Positions 2,205-60,667 of a DNA stretch of 64,000 nt are shown here, piece by piece; position 1 is the first letter of the stretch; each line of letters starts with the position of its first letter. The stretch comes from Ignavibacteria bacterium (GTDB lineage Bacteria; Bacteroidota; Ignavibacteria; Kapaibacteriales; UBA4661). The stretch lies in the NCBI GenBank assembly GCA_014654705.1, contig JACVZY010000025.1, positions 4,640 through 68,639 on the forward strand, given 5' to 3'. The translations under genes were made by a program, and so were the position numbers. The notes below the pieces were generated by a model. That model was given only the letters and a program-made list of their open reading frames with translations. It was not told the DNA's origin and did not search any database.

Positions 2205-5200
2205 ATGACAAAATTCATTCGCAATATAATCGCTTTTTCACTCAAGAACCGTGCCTTTACATTCTTTTGGGTGGGGGTGCTGGTCATAGCTGGCATTATT
2301 GCCTTCCGCACGATGCCTATTGAGGCATTTCCGGATGTTACCAATACACAGATTATCATTGTCACAGAGTGGAACGGACGGAGCGCTGAAGAAATTGAGC
2401 GCTTTGTCACAACACCCATAGAAATCGCCCTCAATCCGGTGCAGCGAAAAACCAGTGTCCGTAGTATCACGATGTTCGGTTTGTCCGTCATAAAGGTCAT
2501 TTTCGAGGACGATGTAGAGGACTTTTTCGCACGCCAGCAGATAAACAATCAACTGCGGGGTGTTTCACTGCCGGAAGGCGTAGAAACTGACGTGCAACCA
2601 CCATACGGACCAACGGGCGAGATTTTTCGTTATGTACTGCAAAGTGCCTCACGCGATACGCGCGAACTCTTAACGATTCAAAACTGGGTCATTGACCGCC
2701 GCCTTCGCTCTGTGCCAGGCGTGGCAGATGTGGTCGCATTCGGCGGACAGGAAAAAGTGTACGAAATCAGTGTTGACCCGGGTTTGCTCTCCAAATACGA
2801 TATTACGCCTTTGGAAGTCTTTCGTGCCATCAGTGCAAGCAACCTCAATGTTGGCGGCGATGTCATCGAAAAGAACGGTCAGGCATATGTTGTGCGGGGC
2901 ATTGGATTGCTGCAATCAATTCCAGATATTGAAAATATTATTGTTGACGAATTTGGTGGTAATCCTGTTTTGGTCAAGAACCTTGCTCACGTGCGCGAAA
3001 GCTCGCTCCCACGTGTGGGACAAGTAGGATTGAACGGTAGCGACGATGTTGTGGAGGGTATTGTCGTTATGCGCAAAAACGAGAATCCGAAAGAAGTATT
3101 GACGCGAGTAAAAGCAAAAATTGAAGAACTTAATAATGGAATCCTCCCTTCCGACGTGAAGATGGAAACGTTCTACGACCGCGATAATTTGATGAATTTC
3201 ACGACCACAACCGTCATGCACAACCTCGTGGAAGGTATAGTGCTGGTAACAGTGGTCGTCTTTTTATTTATGGCGGATTGGCGTACAACTCTCATTGTTT
3301 CTATCATCATTCCGCTTTCGCTTCTTTTTGCCTTTTTGTGCTTGAAGTTGAAAGGCATGAGCGCCAATCTGCTCTCACTGGGAGCGGTGGATTTTGGTAT
3401 CATCATTGATGGGGCGGTGGTAATGGTCGAGGGACTCTTTGTCTCTCTTGACCACGTGGCGCATAAGCGAGGAATGGAGCGCTTTAATCTCCTCGCAAAA
3501 GGTGGGCTTATCAAGCAAGCCGGAACGCAAATGGGCAAAGCAATATTTTTCGCCAAGCTCATCATTATCACCGCTCTTTTACCCATTTTTTCGTTTGAAA
3601 AAGTGGAAGGAAAAATGTTCTCACCCTTAGCATACACGCTGGGGTTTGCACTCTTGGGTGCGCTACTTTTTACGCTGACGCTTGTACCAGTGCTGTCAAA
3701 TATCTTGCTCAACAAAAATGTCCGTGAAAAGCACAATCCCTTTGTCAATTTCTGGAACCACATCGTGGAGCGTGGGTTCTTGTTTACCTTTTATCACAAA
3801 AAAAAGACTTTAGTTGCGTCTTTGGTGCTGCTCGTCCTGACATTCTTTTCGGCAACGTTTTTAGGAACAGAATTTTTGCCCCAATTGAATGAAGGTGCAC
3901 TCTGGGTAGAAGCAAAATTGCCAATGAGCAGTAGTCTGAACGAAACGGTGAAAATGGTCACAACGCTCCGAAAAGAATTACAATCCTTCGAGGAAGTCAA
4001 CGGTGTACTGTCGCAAACCGGACGAAGCAATGACGGCACAGACCCTAGCGGCTTTTATTATGTGCAGATGCAAGTGAATCTGAAACAAAAAAGCGAATGG
4101 AAGCGCAATATCACGATGGACGGCTTGGTGGACGAAATGGACAATAAACTGAAGAAATATCAAGGCATTGTCTATAACTACTCGCAACCGATTATTGACA
4201 ACGTTGCCGAATCAGTTGCCGGTATTAATGCTTCTAATGCCGTCAAAATATATGGTGATGATTTAGACAGGCTGGACGAACTTGCTAATGAGGTCATCAA
4301 AAATATTGATAACGTCGAGGGTATCAAAGACGTGGGGATTTTGAGGAATGTGGGGCAACCGGAAATAAGCGTCCTTCTGGACAAAGAACGTATGGCTGTT
4401 TACGGCGTAACGATTGCCGATGCAGAAGCAGTGCTGGAAATGGCGTTCGGTGGCAAAACGGCAACACAGAAATACGAAGGCGAGCGGAAATTTGATGTAC
4501 GCATCCGCTATGAACAGGATTATCGCAAGGACGAGCAAGACATTACCAATTTGAAAGTACCGACTATTAGCGGGTCGAAAATCCCGATGAAAGAAATTTG
4601 TACTATCAAGAAAATCACGGGACCGGCATTTATTTACCGTGACAACACCAAGCGATTTATCGGCGTGAAGTTCTCTGTGCGCGGGCGCGATTTGGGTAGT
4701 ACGATTGCCGAAGCACAAGCAAACGTCAAACAGCGTGTCCGTTTGCCGAAAGGCTACAGTATCGGCTGGACAGGCGAATTCGAGAATCAAGTTCGCGCCA
4801 CCAAGCGTTTGGGCGAGGTTGTACCTGTAAGTTTGATAGCGATTTTCCTGCTTCTTTTTATCATGTTCGGCAATATGAAGGATTCCCTTCTGGTCCTCGC
4901 AAATGTGCCGTTTGCGCTCATTGGTGGTATTATCGCACTGCATCTGACGGGTATCAACTTTGGTATTTCGGCGGGTGTGGGTTTTATAGCGCTGTTTGGG
5001 ATTTGTATTCAAAATGGAGTCATTCTCATCACTGAATTTCACAACAACATCAAAGCCATGCTCCCGCTTGATGAAGCCATTCTCGCCGCTATTCGCGTAC
5101 GGACGCGCCCTGTGGTGATGACTGCGCTCATGGCTTCTATTGGGCTTCTTCCGGCAGCCATCTCGACAGGTATTGGTTCAGAATCGCAAAAGCCGCTGGC

Positions 5201-16748: not shown

Positions 16749-18476
16749 TTAATTCGTCTTACCCGGCTCGGTTGGAAAGCCCAGAATTGGCGGCTTTGCT
16801 TGCGATTTCGCTTTTTTCTGTGCTTCTATCACATTCACGAGCAAACTGGGCGACGATGCCGAAACCGGCACACCACCTGATTCCGCACCGCAAACACCAT
16901 TAAAAACACCCATATCATTTCCGGCAACAGTAATCTGCTTGAATGTTGTGAGTGGTGTCCCGATGAGGTCAACACCGCGTACAACCTCGTCGGGGCGACC
17001 ATCGGTGAAAATTTTATAGACCAGAAGCGGCAGCACATTGAACGCATTCGGCATCGTGCGGTTCGTGAAGGTGAAGCCGCCTTGAATTTCCACAAAGTAT
17101 AAGCCGTATTCCTTGCCTTGACGCTTGCACTCAGCGCGGAGCATGGTGCGGAGCGTGTCGAAAGGAACGGTCTTTGCTGCTTTCACAAGCAGGTTTGATT
17201 GGCGCGACACGACGGGGAAGCCTGCTTGTCTGCGCCCGTGTCCGTTGGAATTGGGCATTTGGTCAATGGGAGCGCGGGACATCAGAAACTCGCGGAACAC
17301 ACCATTTTTCACGGTTGTTACCTGTTGCCCCGGCACACCTTCATCGTCGAATTTGTAATATCCGGCAAGGTTCTGCCCGGCAAGCGAGCGCAAAGCTGGA
17401 TCAAAAACAACATCTACAAAGTCAGGAAGTATGCGCTCTCCAACAAGGTTTTTGAACGTTTGGCTCGAATTGACATCTTTCTGACGATGCCCTTCGATGC
17501 GATGCCCAAAAATTTCATGGAAAAACACGCCTGCCGCTTCGCCGGATAAAATCGCCGGACCGGAATATGTCTCCATGAGAGGCGCAGTGCGGAGTTTACC
17601 CAAAAGCGTCGTCATGTCAAGAATTTCTTTGCGCATCACGCTTTCGCTGGGAACGCTGTCTGCCGTGAACGCAAAATAGCTGCGGAAGAGCGGCAATGAC
17701 ATTCCGTCATCAGCTTTGGTGCGCCCTTGAGAGAACACGCGCACGTAGGAATCGCTCGTCTGAATCGTCGTGCCTTCGCTATTGACAAAGTACCGATGAA
17801 TTACTTCTGCACGGAAATATACTTCTCCACCATAGATTTTCGGGTCGGCAGCAAAAAGCGCCGAAAGCCGACGCAAGCGCTCACGCCATGCGTCTGTGTT
17901 CACCACAAGGGTTTGGAGCGGCTCGCTGTACGAGGACGGCTTTTCTCTGGAGAAGTCGCCGGATGAATCTTCTTCTTTCACCTTCACAGCACGGTTGCTG
18001 ACAACCTTCAAGTAGCGCTCTGCGGCTGATTTGTACTGGCGGTCGGTTGTTGCCCAAATTGTCGTCCGAATTGAACCAATATCATCATCAAGCGGAATCT
18101 GTGTGCCTCGTGAAAATCCACCCATCTCGAAGTTTGTACCACGAATCTGGCGTTTATTATCAAGGTCATAATTGCCGACACGCACCTCCACATCAAGTGT
18201 CCGCGTGCGGTTGGAATCGTCAATGACGATTTTTCCGAAGGATGCGGTTAGAGTAACATACTGCGTTTCGGTGATGGCATATGAGACAAAATACGGCGGG
18301 TTTGCTTCTCCTTTGAGGTCCGTCATGGTGCGCTGCATCTCGGTTTTCATTGCCTCCAGAATTGGCGATTGTTTGGTCTGTGCGAGAGTATTACTGACAA
18401 ACAAGTATTGAATGGGTACGAAAATGACCGTTGCGACAGCTATACGAAAGAACGAGCGTTGTGGGCGTTGAGACAT
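16749..18476 (-). CDS. secreted TldD/PmbA-family metallopeptidase (TldD-like, catalytic motif intact)
   Basis: It has a signal peptide and the HExxxH-type motif HEIFGHRIEGH. It is a paralog of the gene at 54671..56458. Confidence 0.75.
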   Translation of the reverse strand: MSQRPQRSFFRIAVATVIFVPIQYLFVSNTLAQTKQSPILEAMKTEMQRTMTDLKGEANPPYFVSYAITETQYVTLTASFGKIVIDDSNRTRTLDVEVRVGNYDLDNKRQIRGTNFEMGGFSRGTQIPLDDDIGSIRTTIWATTDRQYKSAAERYLKVVSNRAVKVKEEDSSGDFSREKPSSYSEPLQTLVVNTDAWRERLRRLSALFAADPKIYGGEVYFRAEVIHRYFVNSEGTTIQTSDSYVRVFSQGRTKADDGMSLPLFRSYFAFTADSVPSESVMRKEILDMTTLLGKLRTAPLMETYSGPAILSGEAAGVFFHEIFGHRIEGHRQKDVNSSQTFKNLVGERILPDFVDVVFDPALRSLAGQNLAGYYKFDDEGVPGQQVTTVKNGVFREFLMSRAPIDQMPNSNGHGRRQAGFPVVSRQSNLLVKAAKTVPFDTLRTMLRAECKRQGKEYGLYFVEIQGGFTFTNRTMPNAFNVLPLLVYKIFTDGRPDEVVRGVDLIGTPLTTFKQITVAGNDMGVFNGVCGAESGGVPVSASSPSLLVNVIEAQKKAKSQAKPPILGFPTEPGKTN

Positions 18477-18551: not shown

Positions 18552-19178
18552 TTAATGAGTATTGCTAAATTCCGCCAAATACCGCTTACTAACGACCTTC
18601 AGCGAATCATCCAATTCATACAATGCCGGAATACCCGTCGGGATATTCACTTCCAAAATCTCTTCCGGCGTGAGATTGTCGAGATACATGACGATAGAGC
18701 GGAGCGAATTGCCGTGCGCTGCAATCATCACATTTTTGCCTTCACGGAGTTTGGGTTCGATGACGTCTTTGTAGTACGGAATGCAGCGCTCTTGCGTGTC
18801 TTTGAGTGATTCCCCGTTGGGCGGCGGAACGTCGTAGCTGCGTCGCCAGATTTTTAGTTGCGCGTCACCATATTGCTTCGCAATGTCGTCTTTGTTCAAT
18901 CCTTGCAAATCGCCATAGTGCCGCTCATTCAGCTTTTCGCTACGCTCGGTGGGAATGCCTGACTTCCCGGCAGCGCCCAGCGCGAGTTCTGCAGTGTTCA
19001 TAGCCCGCTTCAGCACAGAGGTAAAGAGCATATCAATTTGAAATGGCTTCAGAAGTTCACCCGCAGCACGGGCTTCTTCTTCGCCTTTGGCGGAGAGTTC
19101 CACGTCCACCCAGCCGGTGAAGCGGTTTTCGAGATTCCATTGGGATTGCCCGTGACGCAATAAAATGAGTTGTGGCAT
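18552..19178 (-). CDS. gpmA: 2,3-bisphosphoglycerate-dependent phosphoglycerate mutase
   Basis: The LILLRHGQSQWN motif and the RHG phosphohistidine signature are present. It is 208 aa. Confidence 0.93.
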   Translation of the reverse strand: MPQLILLRHGQSQWNLENRFTGWVDVELSAKGEEEARAAGELLKPFQIDMLFTSVLKRAMNTAELALGAAGKSGIPTERSEKLNERHYGDLQGLNKDDIAKQYGDAQLKIWRRSYDVPPPNGESLKDTQERCIPYYKDVIEPKLREGKNVMIAAHGNSLRSIVMYLDNLTPEEILEVNIPTGIPALYELDDSLKVVSKRYLAEFSNTH

Positions 19179-53898: not shown

Positions 53899-54306
53899 TT
53901 ATTTCTTTTTGCCTTTTGTTTCAGGAGCAGCGCCCGGTTTCGGACGCTTTGCCCCATACTTGGATCGCGCCTGCTTGCGGTCTTTCACACCCTGCGTATC
54001 GGCAGTACCACGAATAATGTGATATCGAACACCGGGCAAATCTTTAACACGACCACCACGAATCATCACGATAGAGTGCTCTTGCAAATTGTGCCCTTCG
54101 CCTGGAATATACGCCGTAACCTCAATTTGATTCGAGAGACGAACACGAGCTACCTTGCGAAGCGCAGAATTTGGCTTCTTGGGGGTAGTCGTATAAACTC
54201 GCGTACACACGCCGCGCTTTTGGGGACAAGAATCAAGCGCAGGCGATTTACTTTTATATTCGACTACGGTTCTACCTTTGCGAATGAGCTGATTAATTGT
54301 AGGCAT
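53899..54306 (-). CDS. rpsL: 30S ribosomal protein S12
   Basis: [12 protein letters not shown].. with the K-PNSALRK motif. 135 aa. Confidence 0.97.
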
Positions 54307-54670
54307 AACGTCCTAGAATTTCTGTCGTGAGTGATGTTAAATCAACAATGTCGTGCGATATGCAGCAAGTGTAATTCAAGTGAGCAACAAAACTACGATA
54401 CTTTTCTTTGTTGTCCAAATTTTTTTTACAGATTTCGTAAAATTATTATCTATCGCACCACATTTATTGACGACAGAAGAACGCTTTCCGGCTTGCTACA
54501 ATCTACTCTGTACGGCATTTAGATTTTATTTTTCTTTTGATTCCACGTCGAGAAAGTTTATCAAAATAAGGGAAAATAATTGTAGATTAGGTATATCATT
54601 ACCAAAGTAACCATGCGCTACTTCCTCACAATCTTGTTTCTGACATACTAATACAGGTTCGCTTAACACT

Positions 54671-56458
54671 ATGTTCAAGACCCTTTTACTTTCTAGTTTT
54701 ATCCTCTCGTATTGCTTGCCAATTCTTACTTACTCGCAACTAAGTCAAGCACAGACACCACAAAACCAAGAGATTCTGCGTGCTATGCGCGACGAGATTA
54801 AGCGCTCCATGCAAGATCTACGACTTCCGGCTTTAGAAAAACCGTATTATATTCAGTATTCTCTTGTGCAGAACGCATCAACCAATATCAAGGCATCTTT
54901 TGGAAGCCTTACCGAATCTCATCTCTCCCAAGACAAGCGCCTTACTGTTGGCTTGCGCGTCGGCTCGGCACAATTCGATAACACGAATTTTTTTGATCCC
55001 GCGCTTGGCTTCTTTGGCTCCAGCGACGATGAAGAGCGCTTCAAAAGCCGTTCTATTCCCAGTGAATTAGACTATTCAGCGCTTCGCCGTGAACTTTGGC
55101 TTGCTACCGATGCCGCCTATAAGCAGTCAGCCGAGCTGTACGCAAAAAAACAAGCCGCTCTCAAAAACCGCGTTCGCATAGATACTCTTGCAGATTTTAC
55201 GCTCTTTCCCGCTGCTTCAAGTGTTGACACGATTCCCATACCGACACTCGACAAAACCTATTTTGAGCGACTTGCAGTAGATTTATCGGCGATATTTCGA
55301 GACTTTCCTGCCGTTACACTCTCCACCGTTGCAGTTGAATACAACACCAAACAAGAACTTTTCGTGAATACCGAGGCACGGGAATATGTACGTACAGATT
55401 TGATTATCGGAATAGAGATAGTTGCCACGGCGCAGGCAAAAGACGGAATGCCGCTTGCACAGGTGTACAGCACATACAGCCGCACTCCAAGCGGTCTGCC
55501 AAGCCGAGATTCTTTGCTCAAAGCCACGCGGGCATTGGCGCAAAAACTCTCTCAGAGCCTTACCGCCCCCATTGCACAGGCATATTCCGGACCCGTTCTC
55601 CTAGAAGATCAAGCAGCAGCAGAAGCCTTCTTACAGATATTTGCACCTAACCTTGTGACACAAAGGTCTCCCGTTACCGAGCGAGGTATTAGTGATAACT
55701 CACAAAATGCAACCTTCCAGAACAAAGTTGGTGCGCGAGTCATGCCTGAGTTTCTGTCTGTCTCGGTTACACCTTCACAAGCGGTTTACAATACCACACA
55801 ACTCGTAGGCGCATACCGCATTGACGACGAGGCAATTCCGGCGGAGTCTTTCCAAATTATCAAAGGCGGCTATTTGAAAGGTCTTATGGCTTCGCGCACT
55901 CCCACACGGCGCATAAAAACGTCCAACGGACATAACCGTGGTGGCGCGGCTATGTTCAGCATTCTGGACGTTTCAGCAGGCAAAGACCGTACCCAACCCT
56001 TCAAAAAACTGCGTGCGAGAATGCTGCAACTCTGCAAAGACCGCGATTTGCCATATGGAATAGTTGTTCGGAAAATCCTGAATCCGAATATCCTGATGAC
56101 GACCCTTTACAGCCTCACTGAAGGCGAATTTCCCTTTGCCCGCACGCCCGGGCAAATGACCGCACTTGAAGCCTATCGTGTCTATCCCGATGGACGAGAA
56201 GAACTTATACGAGGATGCGATATTGCCGGAATGACAGTCCAATCTTTTAAGGAAATCCTTGCTGTTGGCGACCGCAAAGCTGCCTACAACTGCTATGCGT
56301 TGCCTGTTACCGCGGCATTCTTTTCCGGTGGGGCGCAGTTTTTGCCCGCTTCGGTTATTTTACCGGCACTCCTCTTTGAGGATATCGAAATTCGCCCTAT
56401 TGAAGATGATTTTACCAAACCACCCATCTTGCCGCATCCTTTCTTTTCTCGCAAGTAA
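54671..56458 (+). CDS. secreted TldD/PmbA-family protein lacking the HExxxH motif (TldE/PmbA-like pseudoprotease partner)
   Basis: It has a signal peptide. It is clearly a paralog of the gene at 16749..18476 (ILRAMRDEIKRSMQDL versus ILEAMKTEMQRTMTDL). The position of the catalytic HEIFGH motif reads LQIFAPNL here. Confidence 0.7.
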   Translation: MFKTLLLSSFILSYCLPILTYSQLSQAQTPQNQEILRAMRDEIKRSMQDLRLPALEKPYYIQYSLVQNASTNIKASFGSLTESHLSQDKRLTVGLRVGSAQFDNTNFFDPALGFFGSSDDEERFKSRSIPSELDYSALRRELWLATDAAYKQSAELYAKKQAALKNRVRIDTLADFTLFPAASSVDTIPIPTLDKTYFERLAVDLSAIFRDFPAVTLSTVAVEYNTKQELFVNTEAREYVRTDLIIGIEIVATAQAKDGMPLAQVYSTYSRTPSGLPSRDSLLKATRALAQKLSQSLTAPIAQAYSGPVLLEDQAAAEAFLQIFAPNLVTQRSPVTERGISDNSQNATFQNKVGARVMPEFLSVSVTPSQAVYNTTQLVGAYRIDDEAIPAESFQIIKGGYLKGLMASRTPTRRIKTSNGHNRGGAAMFSILDVSAGKDRTQPFKKLRARMLQLCKDRDLPYGIVVRKILNPNILMTTLYSLTEGEFPFARTPGQMTALEAYRVYPDGREELIRGCDIAGMTVQSFKEILAVGDRKAAYNCYALPVTAAFFSGGAQFLPASVILPALLFEDIEIRPIEDDFTKPPILPHPFFSRK

Positions 56459-56488
56459 AAAATTTTGCTACGATTTATGGTAAAGATC

Positions 56489-59461
56489 ATGCACACTACA
56501 CGAAGAAGTCGGACATATCTTTCTATAAGCCTTGATAAAGCGCTCTCCAAAGCCTCACAAACGATTTTTTATCGAATTTCTAGCCTTTGTACGGGGGTAA
56601 GACTCGTCATTCCCTCAAAGGCATCAATAAGGTTTTTAGTAGGTACATTATTTTACCTCTCCTCGCTATCTGCTCAGGCACAAACACCTTCATACCCCCA
56701 ACATGTTGTATTGGTCAAATTTAGAGCTAATTCCCCACTCTTCACCAAATGGGAATCTAGTAAGCGGCGGGGTACTATTACAGAATGGCAGGATATTCTT
56801 CACACCCACACAACTGAAGCGCTCTTCGACGATAACTTAGTGCAAAGCGTCATTGAACGTTTCAGCCGTCTAACCGAAGACAATCCCGCAAAACGCGCCT
56901 CCACCCTAACTCGTTGGTGCAAAATTCGCTTCTCTGCACCAATAGACCCTGCTTTGCTGTCGGGCAAACTCAAGAATTTGCCCGATGTGGAATATGCCGA
57001 ACCGCTTTACCGCCGTACACTCACAGACACTCCCAACGACCCGTTTATTAACTCACAGCAGTATTTGTCAGTCATTCGAGCTTTTGAAGCGTGGGATGTT
57101 GTGCGGACGCAAGCTGATACGTCGCAGCGCGTCATTGTGGCAATTGTTGATAGCGGAGTTGACTATACCCATGAAGATTTAGCAGCAAATATTTATGTCA
57201 ATCCGGGCGAAAGCGGCAACGATGCACAAGGGCGCGATAAACGCACCAATGGCGTTGACGATGACCGCAACGGCAGAGTGGATGATTGGCACGGTTGGGA
57301 TTTCAGCACCGATGCCGATGCCACAACGGAAAGCAACGACCCCATGCCCATCGGCAATACACACGGCACACACGTCGCAGGAATAGCAGGAGCCGTGACA
57401 AATAATGGTAAAGGCGTAGCAGGTGTAGCCAGAGGCATTTGGCTTTTACCAATCAAATGCAGCCCTCCAAACTCAGGGGATGTACCAAACGGTTTTCGTG
57501 GTATTATCTATGCGGCAACCATGGGTGCAAAGATTATTAATTGCAGTTGGGGCGATACTTCGCGCTCCCAAGCAGAGCAAGAAACGATTGATATTGCCAC
57601 CGAACTCGGTTCATTAGTGGTCGCAACCGCCGGTAATGATCGTCGCTATACAGCTTTTTATCCGGGTTCTTACGACAACGTTTGCTCAGTAGCATGGTTG
57701 GAAAATGATGACACTCATTTTTTCGGCAATTACCACGAAACAGTAGATATTGGCGCTCCCGGCTCAAGTATTTATGCGACATTTACTGATAATCGCTATG
57801 GCTCTATGGGCGGAACATCTATGTCTGCTCCTATGGTTTCGGCAGCAGCAGCACTTGTCAAAATGCGCTTCCCACAATATTCACCCCAACAAATTTTCTC
57901 CCAACTGAAAGCTACTGCCGACAATAACGACCGCCAGAATCCCGACCTTGTGGGCTTCATCGGCACTGGTCGGCTGAATGTTTTAGCTGCCGTTCAAACC
58001 GTCAATCCGCCGTTTATTGAAATTCGTGGCTATACCGTGCAAGATGAAAATAATAATGGACTTCTCGAATCGGGCGAGCGTGTAACGGTGCAACTCAACC
58101 TTGCCAATGTCTTTGCCCCTATTGCGGGAGCACGTATCGCAATGCGGACGACTATCACTACCGGCAGTATGTTCTACCCGTTCTTCGACGATACCGTGAG
58201 GCAAGTTCCTACCTTAGCAGCAAATGAAACACGTACAAATGCTGTCAACTTCAGCTTTCGCCTCACGACGAATTTATCGCAAGATTTTGCCGTCCCCCTG
58301 CTTTTTTCCATTTTTGATGCGAACGGAAAACTCATTGGTCGTGATGCTCTCAGGCTTTCTGTCAATAAATCGTACCAAACCCTGCGCGGTAATGCGCTTG
58401 CGCTCACCGTAAACAGTCGTGGTAGCTTTGGCTTCAATGACTTCCCAATCAATATGCAAGGCGACGGATTATTTTATCAGTTGCGCGATACCAATAATCT
58501 CATTTACGAAGGCGGAATCATTGTAGCAAGCGGATCGGACAGCATCTCATCTTCTGTGCGAAACACCTCAACGCAACGTGACTTAGCTTTTCTAGCAACA
58601 TCGCTCCTTACTGTTTCGACAGCATCAGATTCATCACTTCTGACCGCCAAGGCAAGTTTCATCGACCGCGCTTCCGATACCCAAGCAGGCGTGAAGATTG
58701 ACCAAACAGTGCAGCAATACCGACAATTCCCACGCCCAAATATGGTCATCTCGTCGTACATCATCACGAACACATCAAACCGTGCCTTTTCCAATTTATC
58801 CGCAGGATTATTTTTTGATTGGGATATTGCCAACTATAACATCAATGAGACATTTTGGGATACCGATTGTGGATGCGGTATTGCAAAAAGCATCAATGGC
58901 AACTTCCCTGTCATCGGCGTAAAGCTCCTTTCTCCACAAACACCAACATTTTACCCGATTCAGCTTGGAGATACGGCACAAAACGCAATCACGCTGAACG
59001 ATGGCTTCCCCCGCAGCGATAAATACCGCGCCCTTTCCAGTGGCATTATTTCATCGCGCAAATCCGGCGATATTGCTCACGTCGTCGGTGCAAGCGGCAT
59101 GACACTTCAGATTGGTTCATCCGCTTCAGTTCGGTTCGCCATCGCAGGTGGATTGTCTTTGGATGAAATTCGTACTAGCTTTCGAGTACTCAATCAATCA
59201 GATAGCACTCCCAATCGCCTCTATCCTAATCCCGCAAGCAGCAGTGCTTTTTTGGAATACGAACTCGCAAGTGACCAAATAGTAACCGTAGAACTTTTGA
59301 ACATACTTGGACAAATAGTCGCAACACCCGTAAATCACCTTCAGACTAAGGGCTGGCAGCAAATAGCATTTGCCCTAGATTCACTCAGCCCGGGTGTCTA
59401 TTGGATTCGTTTGCGCGGTGCAACGCTCTCCTTTAGCAAGCCGCTTGTTATCTCACGTTAG
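56489..59461 (+). CDS. large S8-family subtilase with an I9-like propeptide and a T9SS C-terminal sorting domain
   Basis: The catalytic Asp (VAIVDSGVDYTHEDL), His (HGTHVAGIAG) and Ser (GTSMSAPMVSAAAAL) are present. The C-terminus YPNPASSSAF...GVYWIRL is a T9SS CTD. The start is uncertain: the in-frame ORF opens at 56465, and the hydrophobic signal-like segment begins about 45 aa after the first ATG. Confidence 0.85.
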   Translation: MHTTRRSRTYLSISLDKALSKASQTIFYRISSLCTGVRLVIPSKASIRFLVGTLFYLSSLSAQAQTPSYPQHVVLVKFRANSPLFTKWESSKRRGTITEWQDILHTHTTEALFDDNLVQSVIERFSRLTEDNPAKRASTLTRWCKIRFSAPIDPALLSGKLKNLPDVEYAEPLYRRTLTDTPNDPFINSQQYLSVIRAFEAWDVVRTQADTSQRVIVAIVDSGVDYTHEDLAANIYVNPGESGNDAQGRDKRTNGVDDDRNGRVDDWHGWDFSTDADATTESNDPMPIGNTHGTHVAGIAGAVTNNGKGVAGVARGIWLLPIKCSPPNSGDVPNGFRGIIYAATMGAKIINCSWGDTSRSQAEQETIDIATELGSLVVATAGNDRRYTAFYPGSYDNVCSVAWLENDDTHFFGNYHETVDIGAPGSSIYATFTDNRYGSMGGTSMSAPMVSAAAALVKMRFPQYSPQQIFSQLKATADNNDRQNPDLVGFIGTGRLNVLAAVQTVNPPFIEIRGYTVQDENNNGLLESGERVTVQLNLANVFAPIAGARIAMRTTITTGSMFYPFFDDTVRQVPTLAANETRTNAVNFSFRLTTNLSQDFAVPLLFSIFDANGKLIGRDALRLSVNKSYQTLRGNALALTVNSRGSFGFNDFPINMQGDGLFYQLRDTNNLIYEGGIIVASGSDSISSSVRNTSTQRDLAFLATSLLTVSTASDSSLLTAKASFIDRASDTQAGVKIDQTVQQYRQFPRPNMVISSYIITNTSNRAFSNLSAGLFFDWDIANYNINETFWDTDCGCGIAKSINGNFPVIGVKLLSPQTPTFYPIQLGDTAQNAITLNDGFPRSDKYRALSSGIISSRKSGDIAHVVGASGMTLQIGSSASVRFAIAGGLSLDEIRTSFRVLNQSDSTPNRLYPNPASSSAFLEYELASDQIVTVELLNILGQIVATPVNHLQTKGWQQIAFALDSLSPGVYWIRLRGATLSFSKPLVISR

Positions 59462-59467
59462 TTCTGG

Positions 59468-60667
59468 TTAGTCACGTGCTTGATTGTGAATGATTGTCTC
59501 GAAAAGTTCGTGAATATGCGCAAATGCGTTACTATGCACTCTGGAGCGGACGTGCGCTGCATAATCTGTTATGGGGCGAAGGGCATAAAATTTCCGCACT
59601 GCTTCAGCAAGCGCTTCTGAAGACTCCGGTTGCACGACAAAGCCCGTCTTACCCTCGTCCACTGATTCTGCAAGTCCACCGACATTAGTAATGATGACCG
59701 GACGCTCAAAACCATATGCAATACCCAAAATCCCACTCTGCGTGGCGCTTCGGTAAGGCAGCATCACAACATCACACGCGGCATAAAACTTGGCGACTTC
59801 TTCATTGGGGATGAAGCGGTTTATCATCCTGACGTGCGACTCCAAAGCATTGTCGCGGATGAGGTCGTGATACGGCTTCGGGTCGTCGTAGAACTCCCCC
59901 GCAATAAGCAATTTTACACGAGGGTTGTCTTTTACCATCGTCGGCATGGCTCGTAAGAGAATATCCAGCCCCTTGTATTTGCGGACATAGCCGAAGAAAA
60001 GCAATACTTCATCCTCCGGTGAAAAACCGAAATCTTTTTTTGCGGCTTCTTTGCTCATCTGAAGCGCTGTTTGGGCATAAAAATCACCAAAGACAGGAAG
60101 CTCCGAACGATACACGGGCTTATCCCCGGCAAAGGGCTTCACATCGTCTGCGACTTGGCTGGAAAGCGTTAGAAATGATGAAGCATTAACCAAGCCTAGT
60201 TTTGTGAGTACGGTATCAATCGCACGCGCTTCATGGGAAATCACGTTTTCGGTAATAAAAAGAATCTTGCGGCGAAGCTCTTTCCCCAAAAGGCTGGAAA
60301 CCGCATAATGACTTGGTCCAAAGAATGGATTCCACCAATCGAAAACGACTAAATCCGGCTTCAGTTCACGCACCCGACGAGCCACACGCAGCCACGAAAG
60401 CGGGTTAACCGAACTCAGCAAGCGCTCCGACGGTACTTGCTTCGTCATTGCTTGGCTTTGGTCGTACTGAGTGGTTCCGGGAAAAAGCAGCGACGGATAG
60501 AGCAGCGTATAGTTAATGAAGTGAATGCGAAAATGCGGTTCCAGCGCCTCGTAGAGATGCGACATAAAAAGCGCATTCCCACCGCGATACGGGTAGGCAG
60601 GACCGATAAGAACGATGTTTTTTTGCGATGTCTGGGGCATCATTAACCTTTGTACACCTTGTGTCAA
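59468..60667 (-). CDS. family 4 glycosyltransferase (GT4)
   Basis: 399 aa with the ..FVVQPESSEALAEAV.. GT4 C-terminal motif. It is convergent with the S8 protease gene. Confidence 0.8.
   Translation of the reverse strand: MTQGVQRLMMPQTSQKNIVLIGPAYPYRGGNALFMSHLYEALEPHFRIHFINYTLLYPSLLFPGTTQYDQSQAMTKQVPSERLLSSVNPLSWLRVARRVRELKPDLVVFDWWNPFFGPSHYAVSSLLGKELRRKILFITENVISHEARAIDTVLTKLGLVNASSFLTLSSQVADDVKPFAGDKPVYRSELPVFGDFYAQTALQMSKEAAKKDFGFSPEDEVLLFFGYVRKYKGLDILLRAMPTMVKDNPRVKLLIAGEFYDDPKPYHDLIRDNALESHVRMINRFIPNEEVAKFYAACDVVMLPYRSATQSGILGIAYGFERPVIITNVGGLAESVDEGKTGFVVQPESSEALAEAVRKFYALRPITDYAAHVRSRVHSNAFAHIHELFETIIHNQARD

Follow-up and report, generated by a model that had tools for sequence, protein, structure and literature searches.

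The 64,000-nucleotide stretch of DNA considered here (positions 4,640 to 68,639 of contig JACVZY010000025.1 from an Ignavibacteria bacterium; "the window") carries two paralogous genes of the TldD/PmbA family, whose products measure 575 and 595 amino acids (aa). We think it fairly probable that the two proteins make up, as its two subunits, a TldD-type metallopeptidase (MEROPS family M103), exported and probably located in the periplasm, and that the gene of the inactive subunit was relocated away from its partner together with the gene downstream of it. The latter encodes an S8 subtilase with the sorting domain of the type IX secretion system (T9SS). An earlier note on this DNA, made from the sequence alone, had pointed to a split, secreted TldD/TldE-like pair and had attached weight to the subtilase; its description of the pair holds in most respects, and the role that it gave to the subtilase is not supported.

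How would such a system work? The 575-aa protein would supply the single metal site, made of an HExxxH motif and a distal Cys, and the 595-aa protein, a dead partner derived from TldD, would close the hollow shell in the manner of TldE from Escherichia coli. The resulting TldD/E-like heterodimer would be housed in the periplasm and act within the envelope by trimming unfolded oligopeptides, in analogy to E. coli TldD/E, for which a "pencil sharpener" mechanism has been described (PMC5810440, PMC10885120). As for the genes, the ancestral two-gene operon would have had the order His_Phos_1, active gene, in some cases a small membrane protein gene, and inactive gene; the inactive gene and the S8 gene behind it would then have been transferred to a site beside the rpsL operon, with the active gene keeping its place. 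At most, the S8 neighbor would share with the pair a role in protein foraging, in which the subtilase acts extracellularly and the peptidase periplasmically. A periplasmic step of protein foraging, or the clearance of peptides from the envelope, is a plausible role for the pair.

An active subunit and its dead partner

Membership of the family is clear for both proteins. The Pfam model PF19289 (PmbA_TldD_3rd) scores above its gathering threshold in the 595-aa and the 575-aa protein (E 2e-11 and 7e-28, respectively), and the two are 30% identical end to end (pairwise E about 3e-64 to 1e-63), a much closer relation than that between E. coli TldD and TldE (20% identity, E 1e-16). With respect to E. 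coli TldD, which has 481 aa, the 575-aa and the 595-aa protein are longer by 94 and 114 aa, in good agreement with the excess of about 100 aa given by the earlier note, which had also recognized the two open reading frames (ORFs) as paralogues of this family. The TldD models of NCBIfam remain below cut-off for both, and the 595-aa protein has there a weak match to an archaeal TldD model only and none to PmbA. Related proteins in the databases are already named "TldD/PmbA family" or "metallopeptidase TldD-related".

The 575-aa protein matches E. coli TldD (PDB 5NJ5, E 7e-19), and its residues H320, E321, H325 and C529 align with His262, Glu263, His267 and Cys454 of the latter; the segment GVCGAE falls on the strand that carries Cys454. 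All four residues are invariant among the 28 active orthologues extracted from related loci. The metal in E. coli TldD is bound by His262, His267 and Cys454; none of the three is retained in TldE, and TldD needs TldE for its activity (Ghilarov et al. 2017, PMC5810440). That the first protein keeps the HExxxH site, as had been claimed, is therefore borne out by the alignment, with the distal Cys also intact.

The second protein reads LQIFAP (residues 321-326) where its active paralogue has HEIFGH, and F[AV]PN occupies the metal-site position in 18 out of 18 diverse inactive homologues. The loss of the catalytic residues, already proposed in the earlier note, thus extends to the whole family, in which no His or Cys is invariant in alignments of 18 and of 83 sequences. 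Could another metal site have taken the place of the lost one? In the set of 83 homologues, every Cys is conserved below 80% (C541 occurs in 11%), and the sole His at or above that level, H421 (89%), sits within an NGH brace motif common to the active subunit, with no second conserved ligand. For these reasons an alternative site made of His or Cys was rejected, and this exclusion covers His and Cys ligands, so that an all-acidic site may still be conceived.

A protein that has lost its active site may be on its way to decay, and the selection acting on the gene argues otherwise. The ratio of nonsynonymous to synonymous substitution rates (dN/dS) is 0.02-0.04 against the related loci L007, L006 and L009, a sign of strong purifying selection; because of it, the gene is taken to encode a functional protein, and the 595-aa product is, judged from its sequence, a functional pseudoenzyme.

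What kind of partner is it? Searches of the PDB with the inactive protein, as a single sequence and as a profile, returned nothing significant, and it was placed by fold search only. Its AlphaFold2 model has a mean pLDDT (predicted local distance difference test score) of 74.7 and matches structures of TldD, TldE and PmbA only, with E from 1e-20 to 1e-16. Among these are the PmbA/TldE homodimers 1VL4 (T. maritima), 3QTD (P. aeruginosa), 1VPB (B. thetaiotaomicron) and 6J6A (T. kodakarensis), non-catalytic members of the TldD family that the model matches with E of 1e-20 to 1e-17 and TM scores of ~0.64-0.70; in sequence, the similarity to them is negligible, and the inactive protein is ~150 aa longer and apparently exported. 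Scores do not tell whether it stands nearer to TldD or to TldE: hhalign and hmmsearch rate the inactive family as equally weak against the two E. coli subunits, and the blastp match to E. coli TldE has an E of 0.01 and covers 75 residues. The question was therefore judged by the pattern of insertions. Where E. coli TldE shows gaps, the inactive protein has two segments, a brace-like one (NGHNRGGAAMFSILDVS) and a long one that resembles the clamp, as seen in a MAFFT alignment of very divergent sequences that deserves moderate confidence. With the same moderate confidence, the inactive partner would be no classic orthologue of PmbA, but a copy of the exported TldD that has degenerated. Accordingly, the likening of this protein to PmbA/TldE in the earlier note stands as regards the missing catalytic residues and fails as regards the insertions, which are of the TldD type, and the PmbA models, which do not match.

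Two sequence features complete this picture. The inactive family has a near-invariant motif of its own, FDNTNFFDxxLGFFGSSDDEE, a region with pLDDT <50 in the model; it might be a partner-binding or a cation-binding loop. Conversely, a C-terminal KPPIL tail is common to the active and the inactive proteins, is specific to this lineage, and is absent from E. coli.

Both proteins begin with the features of an export signal: a positive charge, a hydrophobic core of 12-20 residues and a cleavage motif of small residues, called by hydrophobicity and the -3/-1 rule. In 18 of 18 inactive homologues, a variable hydrophobic N-terminus precedes a conserved mature start, and, more generally, the N-termini of both orthologue families vary in sequence while a hydrophobic stretch is kept in nearly all, with a few low-scoring members. 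Neither protein has a twin-arginine motif or a lipobox, and in the Pfam search neither has the T9SS C-terminal domain (Por_Secre_tail), which occurs in the S8 protein only. Both are probably exported via Sec, and a periplasmic location is preferred to a secreted or co-secreted one because of the missing T9SS domain. The signal peptides of the earlier note are thus supported by this heuristic in the two proteins and in their orthologues, and its word "secreted" is better replaced by "periplasmic". The coordinates of all these features are collected in Table 1.

Table 1. Features of the window related to the TldD-like pair and its neighbors (positions counted from the first letter of the window)
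Feature	Position	Strand	Description	Basis
Inactive (non-catalytic) TldD-like partner	54671..56458	+	595 aa, TldD/PmbA fold, metal site lost	ORF, Pfam PF19289, AlphaFold2
Predicted Sec signal peptide of inactive partner	54671..54751	+	Residues 1-27 (MFK + hydrophobic core + SQA|Q)	Hydrophobicity, -3/-1 rule
Near-invariant motif FDNTNFFDxxLGFFGSSDDEE	54974..55036	+	Residues 102-122, specific to inactive partner	Invariant columns, 18-homologue alignment
Degenerate metal-site position LQIFAPN	55631..55651	+	Residues 321-327	Pairwise alignment with active paralogue
C-terminal KPPIL tail of inactive protein	56417..56431	+		In 75/83 inactive orthologues
Catalytic TldD-type metallopeptidase subunit	16749..18476	-	575 aa, predicted signal peptide	ORF, Pfam, PDB match
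Predicted Sec signal peptide of active subunit	18381..18476	-	Residues 1-32 (TLA|Q cleavage)	Heuristic, orthologue alignment
HEIFGH zinc-binding/catalytic motif	17502..17519	-	Residues 320-325	Aligned to E. coli TldD HEAVGH; invariant in 28 orthologues
Cys529, predicted third metal ligand	16890..16892	-	Equivalent to E. coli TldD Cys454	Alignment; ligand role per PMC5810440
C-terminal KPPIL tail of active protein	16779..16793	-		In 26/28 active orthologues
His_Phos_1 (phosphoglycerate-mutase-like) gene	18552..19178	-	Conserved upstream neighbor of active gene; marks the ancestral position of the pair	Pfam
Intergenic region, divergent rpsL to inactive gene	54307..54670	.	364 nt	
S8 subtilase with T9SS sorting domain	56465..59461	+	Maximal ORF 998 aa, true start uncertain	Peptidase_S8 (PF00082) E 5e-48, Por_Secre_tail E 7e-10
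Por_Secre_tail (type A sorting domain) of S8 protease	59219..59452	+	Residues 919-996 of maximal ORF	

Conservation of the pair and separation of its genes

Do the two genes belong together in other genomes? For this comparison, 80 loci were taken from species-representative genomes by means of two motifs specific to the inactive family, FDNTNFFDxxLGFFGSSDDEE being used as a family-specific search pattern, and 192 stretches were confirmed as relatives; five further loci were added, and tblastn was used to map the active gene, S8 and a small gene situated between the partners. The signature motifs of the inactive partner occur in at least 192 species representatives of Ignavibacteria/Kapabacteria, and its closest relatives are in Kapabacteria/Kapaibacterium and in metagenome-assembled genomes (MAGs) of Ignavibacteria.

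Sequence upstream of the inactive gene is sufficient in 76 loci, and in 54 of them the active gene immediately precedes it on the same strand; for this reason the two are regarded as a specific, ancestrally co-transcribed pair; the conserved pairing that the earlier note had proposed to look for is indeed there. A multitude of unpaired paralogues was considered and discarded, since tblastn finds two TldD-like genes and no third copy in the 64-kb window, and the 80 loci of the relatives are all distinct and come from separately titled assemblies.

In the other 22 loci, the active gene is missing within 10 kb of the inactive one. These split loci fall in at least three separate clades of an approximate neighbor-joining tree, and all relatives with an inactive protein at least 65% identical to that of the window, and with enough upstream sequence, are split. 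A close relative has a 98% identical active orthologue and a 96% identical inactive one, probably on one contig of 347,221 bases. The separation of the genes is, as the synteny reads, a lineage-specific rearrangement and not a new system. Thus, the distance between them, to which the earlier note had drawn attention, is real in the window and is not remarkable, having arisen at least three times.

Which of the two genes moved? The His_Phos_1 gene is the neighbor of the active gene in the window, in the split loci L086 and L087, and in at least 13 loci where the pair is adjacent. Because the active gene keeps this neighbor in split and unsplit genomes alike, the inactive gene is considered the one that moved. 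A glyoxalase-family gene precedes His_Phos_1 in many loci. Between the active and the inactive genes, 21 loci have a further gene of ~175 aa (e.g., L005, 9465..9992), whose product resembles a membrane protein, with a hydrophobic N-terminal half and a match to DUF6141 below the Pfam cut-off; no homologue of it was found in the window. A tRNA scan of the window detected no tRNA gene and so offered no obvious landmark of integration.

Two further observations concern the loci themselves. Several MAG records with the locus (L015, L020, L027, L032 and others) are titled "uncultured Hyphomicrobiales" or "Patescibacteria group", and this taxonomy is probably wrong. In addition, a second, divergent paralogue of elongation factor G, 44-45% identical to fusA of the window, lies a few kb downstream of the locus in the close relatives L003 (20217..21851), L006 (~16175) and L007 (~16150).

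The subtilase neighbor and the alternative readings

The gene that follows the inactive one on the same strand encodes a large S8 protease destined for the T9SS, as the earlier note had stated: besides the Peptidase_S8 and Por_Secre_tail domains, the motifs VDSGVD, HGTHVAG and GTSMSAP of the Asp/His/Ser triad are located at 228, 300 and 450 in the residue numbering of the maximal ORF. The spacing of 6 bp between the two genes is instead an artefact of that ORF, for it presupposes a TTG start at 56465. The only other canonical starts before the core of the S8 signal peptide, ATG 56477 and ATG 56489, leave gaps of 18 and 30 nt. Moreover, the 48 codons from ATG 56489 evolve in a nearly neutral manner (dN/dS 0.75 vs 0.11 for the remainder, a small sample), and at position 56576 the ATT of the window corresponds to an ATG in the 96% relative. 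Translation may begin near 56576, ~115 nt past the stop of the inactive gene, and the 5' part (56465..56640) could possibly contain a non-canonical start or a long leader. The intergenic region upstream of the inactive gene presumably holds its promoter, and possibly that of the S8 gene too. A scan of 54200..59800 for promoters and terminators gave matches no commoner than in shuffled controls, with a consensus that may not suit the promoters of this host, and the same scan showed no terminator-like site between the two genes.

How constant is this neighbor? Of ~69 informative loci, 11 have an S8 gene in the same orientation within 1.5 kb downstream of the inactive gene, and these 11 belong to a single clade of the tree (among them the window, L001, L006-L009, L012, L013, L015 and L017). 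Even within this clade it is missing in L003 and L026, and in L011 it is inverted and 2.5 kb away. The order active-inactive-S8 is seen in L013, L015 and L017, so that an ancestral row of three genes is likely; the inactive and S8 genes would have left the active gene later, as one unit. The gene upstream of this unit is rpsL in three cases (the window, L006 and L007), and L001, L008, L009 and L012 have other genes there. Outside the clade, the commonest downstream genes, commoner than S8, are Wzz-like and Wzy_C (O-antigen ligase-like) genes, present in 19-23 loci (L005, L043, L044, L050 and others). The specific link with the subtilase suggested by the earlier note is not sustained by these counts, and its proposal of a TldD/E-like dimer that processes the S8 protease, or is co-secreted with it, finds no supporting evidence; the TldD-like proteins have no T9SS domain.

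Nevertheless, the inactive protein could work with the S8 protease in another manner: co-transcribed with it, it might be a periplasmic chaperone or an inhibitor or, with the active subunit, it might process the pro-peptide or the C-terminal domain before T9SS export. The common strand, the short gap with no terminator-like site, and the persistence of the linkage over loci that span 53-96% protein identity and several flanking contexts are consistent with such a partnership. Against it are the ~58 of 69 informative loci with no S8 gene, the confinement of the 11 positive ones to a single clade, as expected from one historical event, the losses and the inversion within that clade, the Wzz/Wzy_C genes that take the downstream place in most others, and a 5' region of the S8 gene that resembles an untranslated leader with, possibly, a promoter of its own. 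Taken together, these data make the partnership unlikely, if not negligibly so. A more ambitious version, in which the shell of exported TldD and pseudo-TldD would, in this Kapabacteria clade, be a dedicated periplasmic factor for the maturation or quality control of T9SS cargo, trimming the S8 pro-peptide or unfolded termini before outer-membrane translocation, with the dead subunit setting the specificity, is speculative and has a slim chance of being correct. It is also conceivable that the two TldD-like proteins no longer cooperate, the active one being a homodimer and the inactive one having a separate, non-enzymatic role as a PmbA-like homodimeric shell or a binding protein. This would explain why their genes drifted apart, and it agrees with the repeated origin of the split, with the crystallization of TldE/PmbA as homodimers, with the active TldD homodimer reported in Sulfolobus (cited in PMC5810440), and with the invariant motif peculiar to the inactive family. 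Yet in E. coli the heterodimer is the sole active form (PMC5810440) even though the two genes are unlinked, adjacency is the majority state among the relatives, the lineage-specific KPPIL tail is common to both proteins, and both genes are kept in the window and in its 96-98% relative (one 347-kb contig); we regard such an uncoupling as quite improbable. Finally, the pair might be a TldD/E-like hydrolase with another substrate, for instance of the N-deacetylase type, acting on an envelope or polysaccharide component and not on peptides. The polysaccharide genes downstream of the pair in other clades would suit this idea, and N-deacetylase homologues of TldD/E reportedly take part in lincosamide biosynthesis, a subject that a 2022 review by Vobruba (cited in PMC10885120) is said to treat. 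However, the HExxxH/Cys site and the conserved residues flanking it match the peptidase TldD, and the neighboring genes vary by clade and include housekeeping genes, so that we would give this last option hardly any chance.

The exported two-subunit peptidase is the reading that we prefer, and it too has points that weigh against it. The genes separated independently at least three times, which fits a coupling weaker than that of a strict operon. The linkage of the inactive gene with S8 is kept in at least three flanking contexts, and this leaves room for co-transcription or a functional tie within the S8-linked clade. In Sulfolobus, a homodimer of TldD is reported to be active. Lastly, the N-termini may be uncleaved membrane anchors, which the heuristic does not separate from cleaved signal peptides.

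Relation to known systems and biological meaning

Compared to the best-known member of the family, E. coli TldD/TldE (M103, PDB 5NJ5, PMC5810440), the exported pair has the same fold and the same division of labor at the level of residues, with one subunit bearing HExxxH and the distal Cys, and a paralogue without the ligands; in both cases, the genes are unlinked, in E. coli as in the window. There are also differences. The exported proteins are about 95-145 aa longer than the E. coli subunits (481 and 450 aa), with signal-peptide-like N-termini and a C-terminal KPPIL tail that the latter do not have, and the dead subunit keeps the brace and clamp segments typical of TldD, absent from E. coli TldE. 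As for the downstream gene, it conforms to the T9SS-secreted S8 subtilases of Bacteroidota, with the S8 triad and the type A sorting domain, whereas the sorting domain is missing from both TldD-like proteins.

In other Bacteroidota, too, TldD/PmbA pairs with signal peptides have been annotated. To our knowledge, TldD/E has been characterized only as a cytoplasmic peptidase, which processes microcin B17, degrades CcdA, and removes the leader peptides of RiPPs (peptides made by ribosomes and then modified after translation). A literature search of incomplete coverage found no relevant paper, either on a TldD/E that is exported or periplasmic or on the TldD of Ignavibacteria or Kapabacteria. The pair represents an uncharacterized form of the known TldD/E protease (M103), one that is exported; in this sense, the "uncharacterised arrangement" of the earlier note is a fair description of the exported TldD/E, and not of the gene separation or the S8 adjacency, which are specific to the lineage and by themselves carry little weight.

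What these genes may teach about the protease is a different matter. A TldD/E located in the envelope and conserved across Ignavibacteria and Kapabacteria would extend both its known location and its evolution, and the dead subunit, apparently derived from TldD, would add to the TldD/E family a second case of a partner that is a pseudoenzyme. For the bacteria themselves, the exported pair could fill the periplasmic step of protein foraging in heterotrophs that bear a T9SS.

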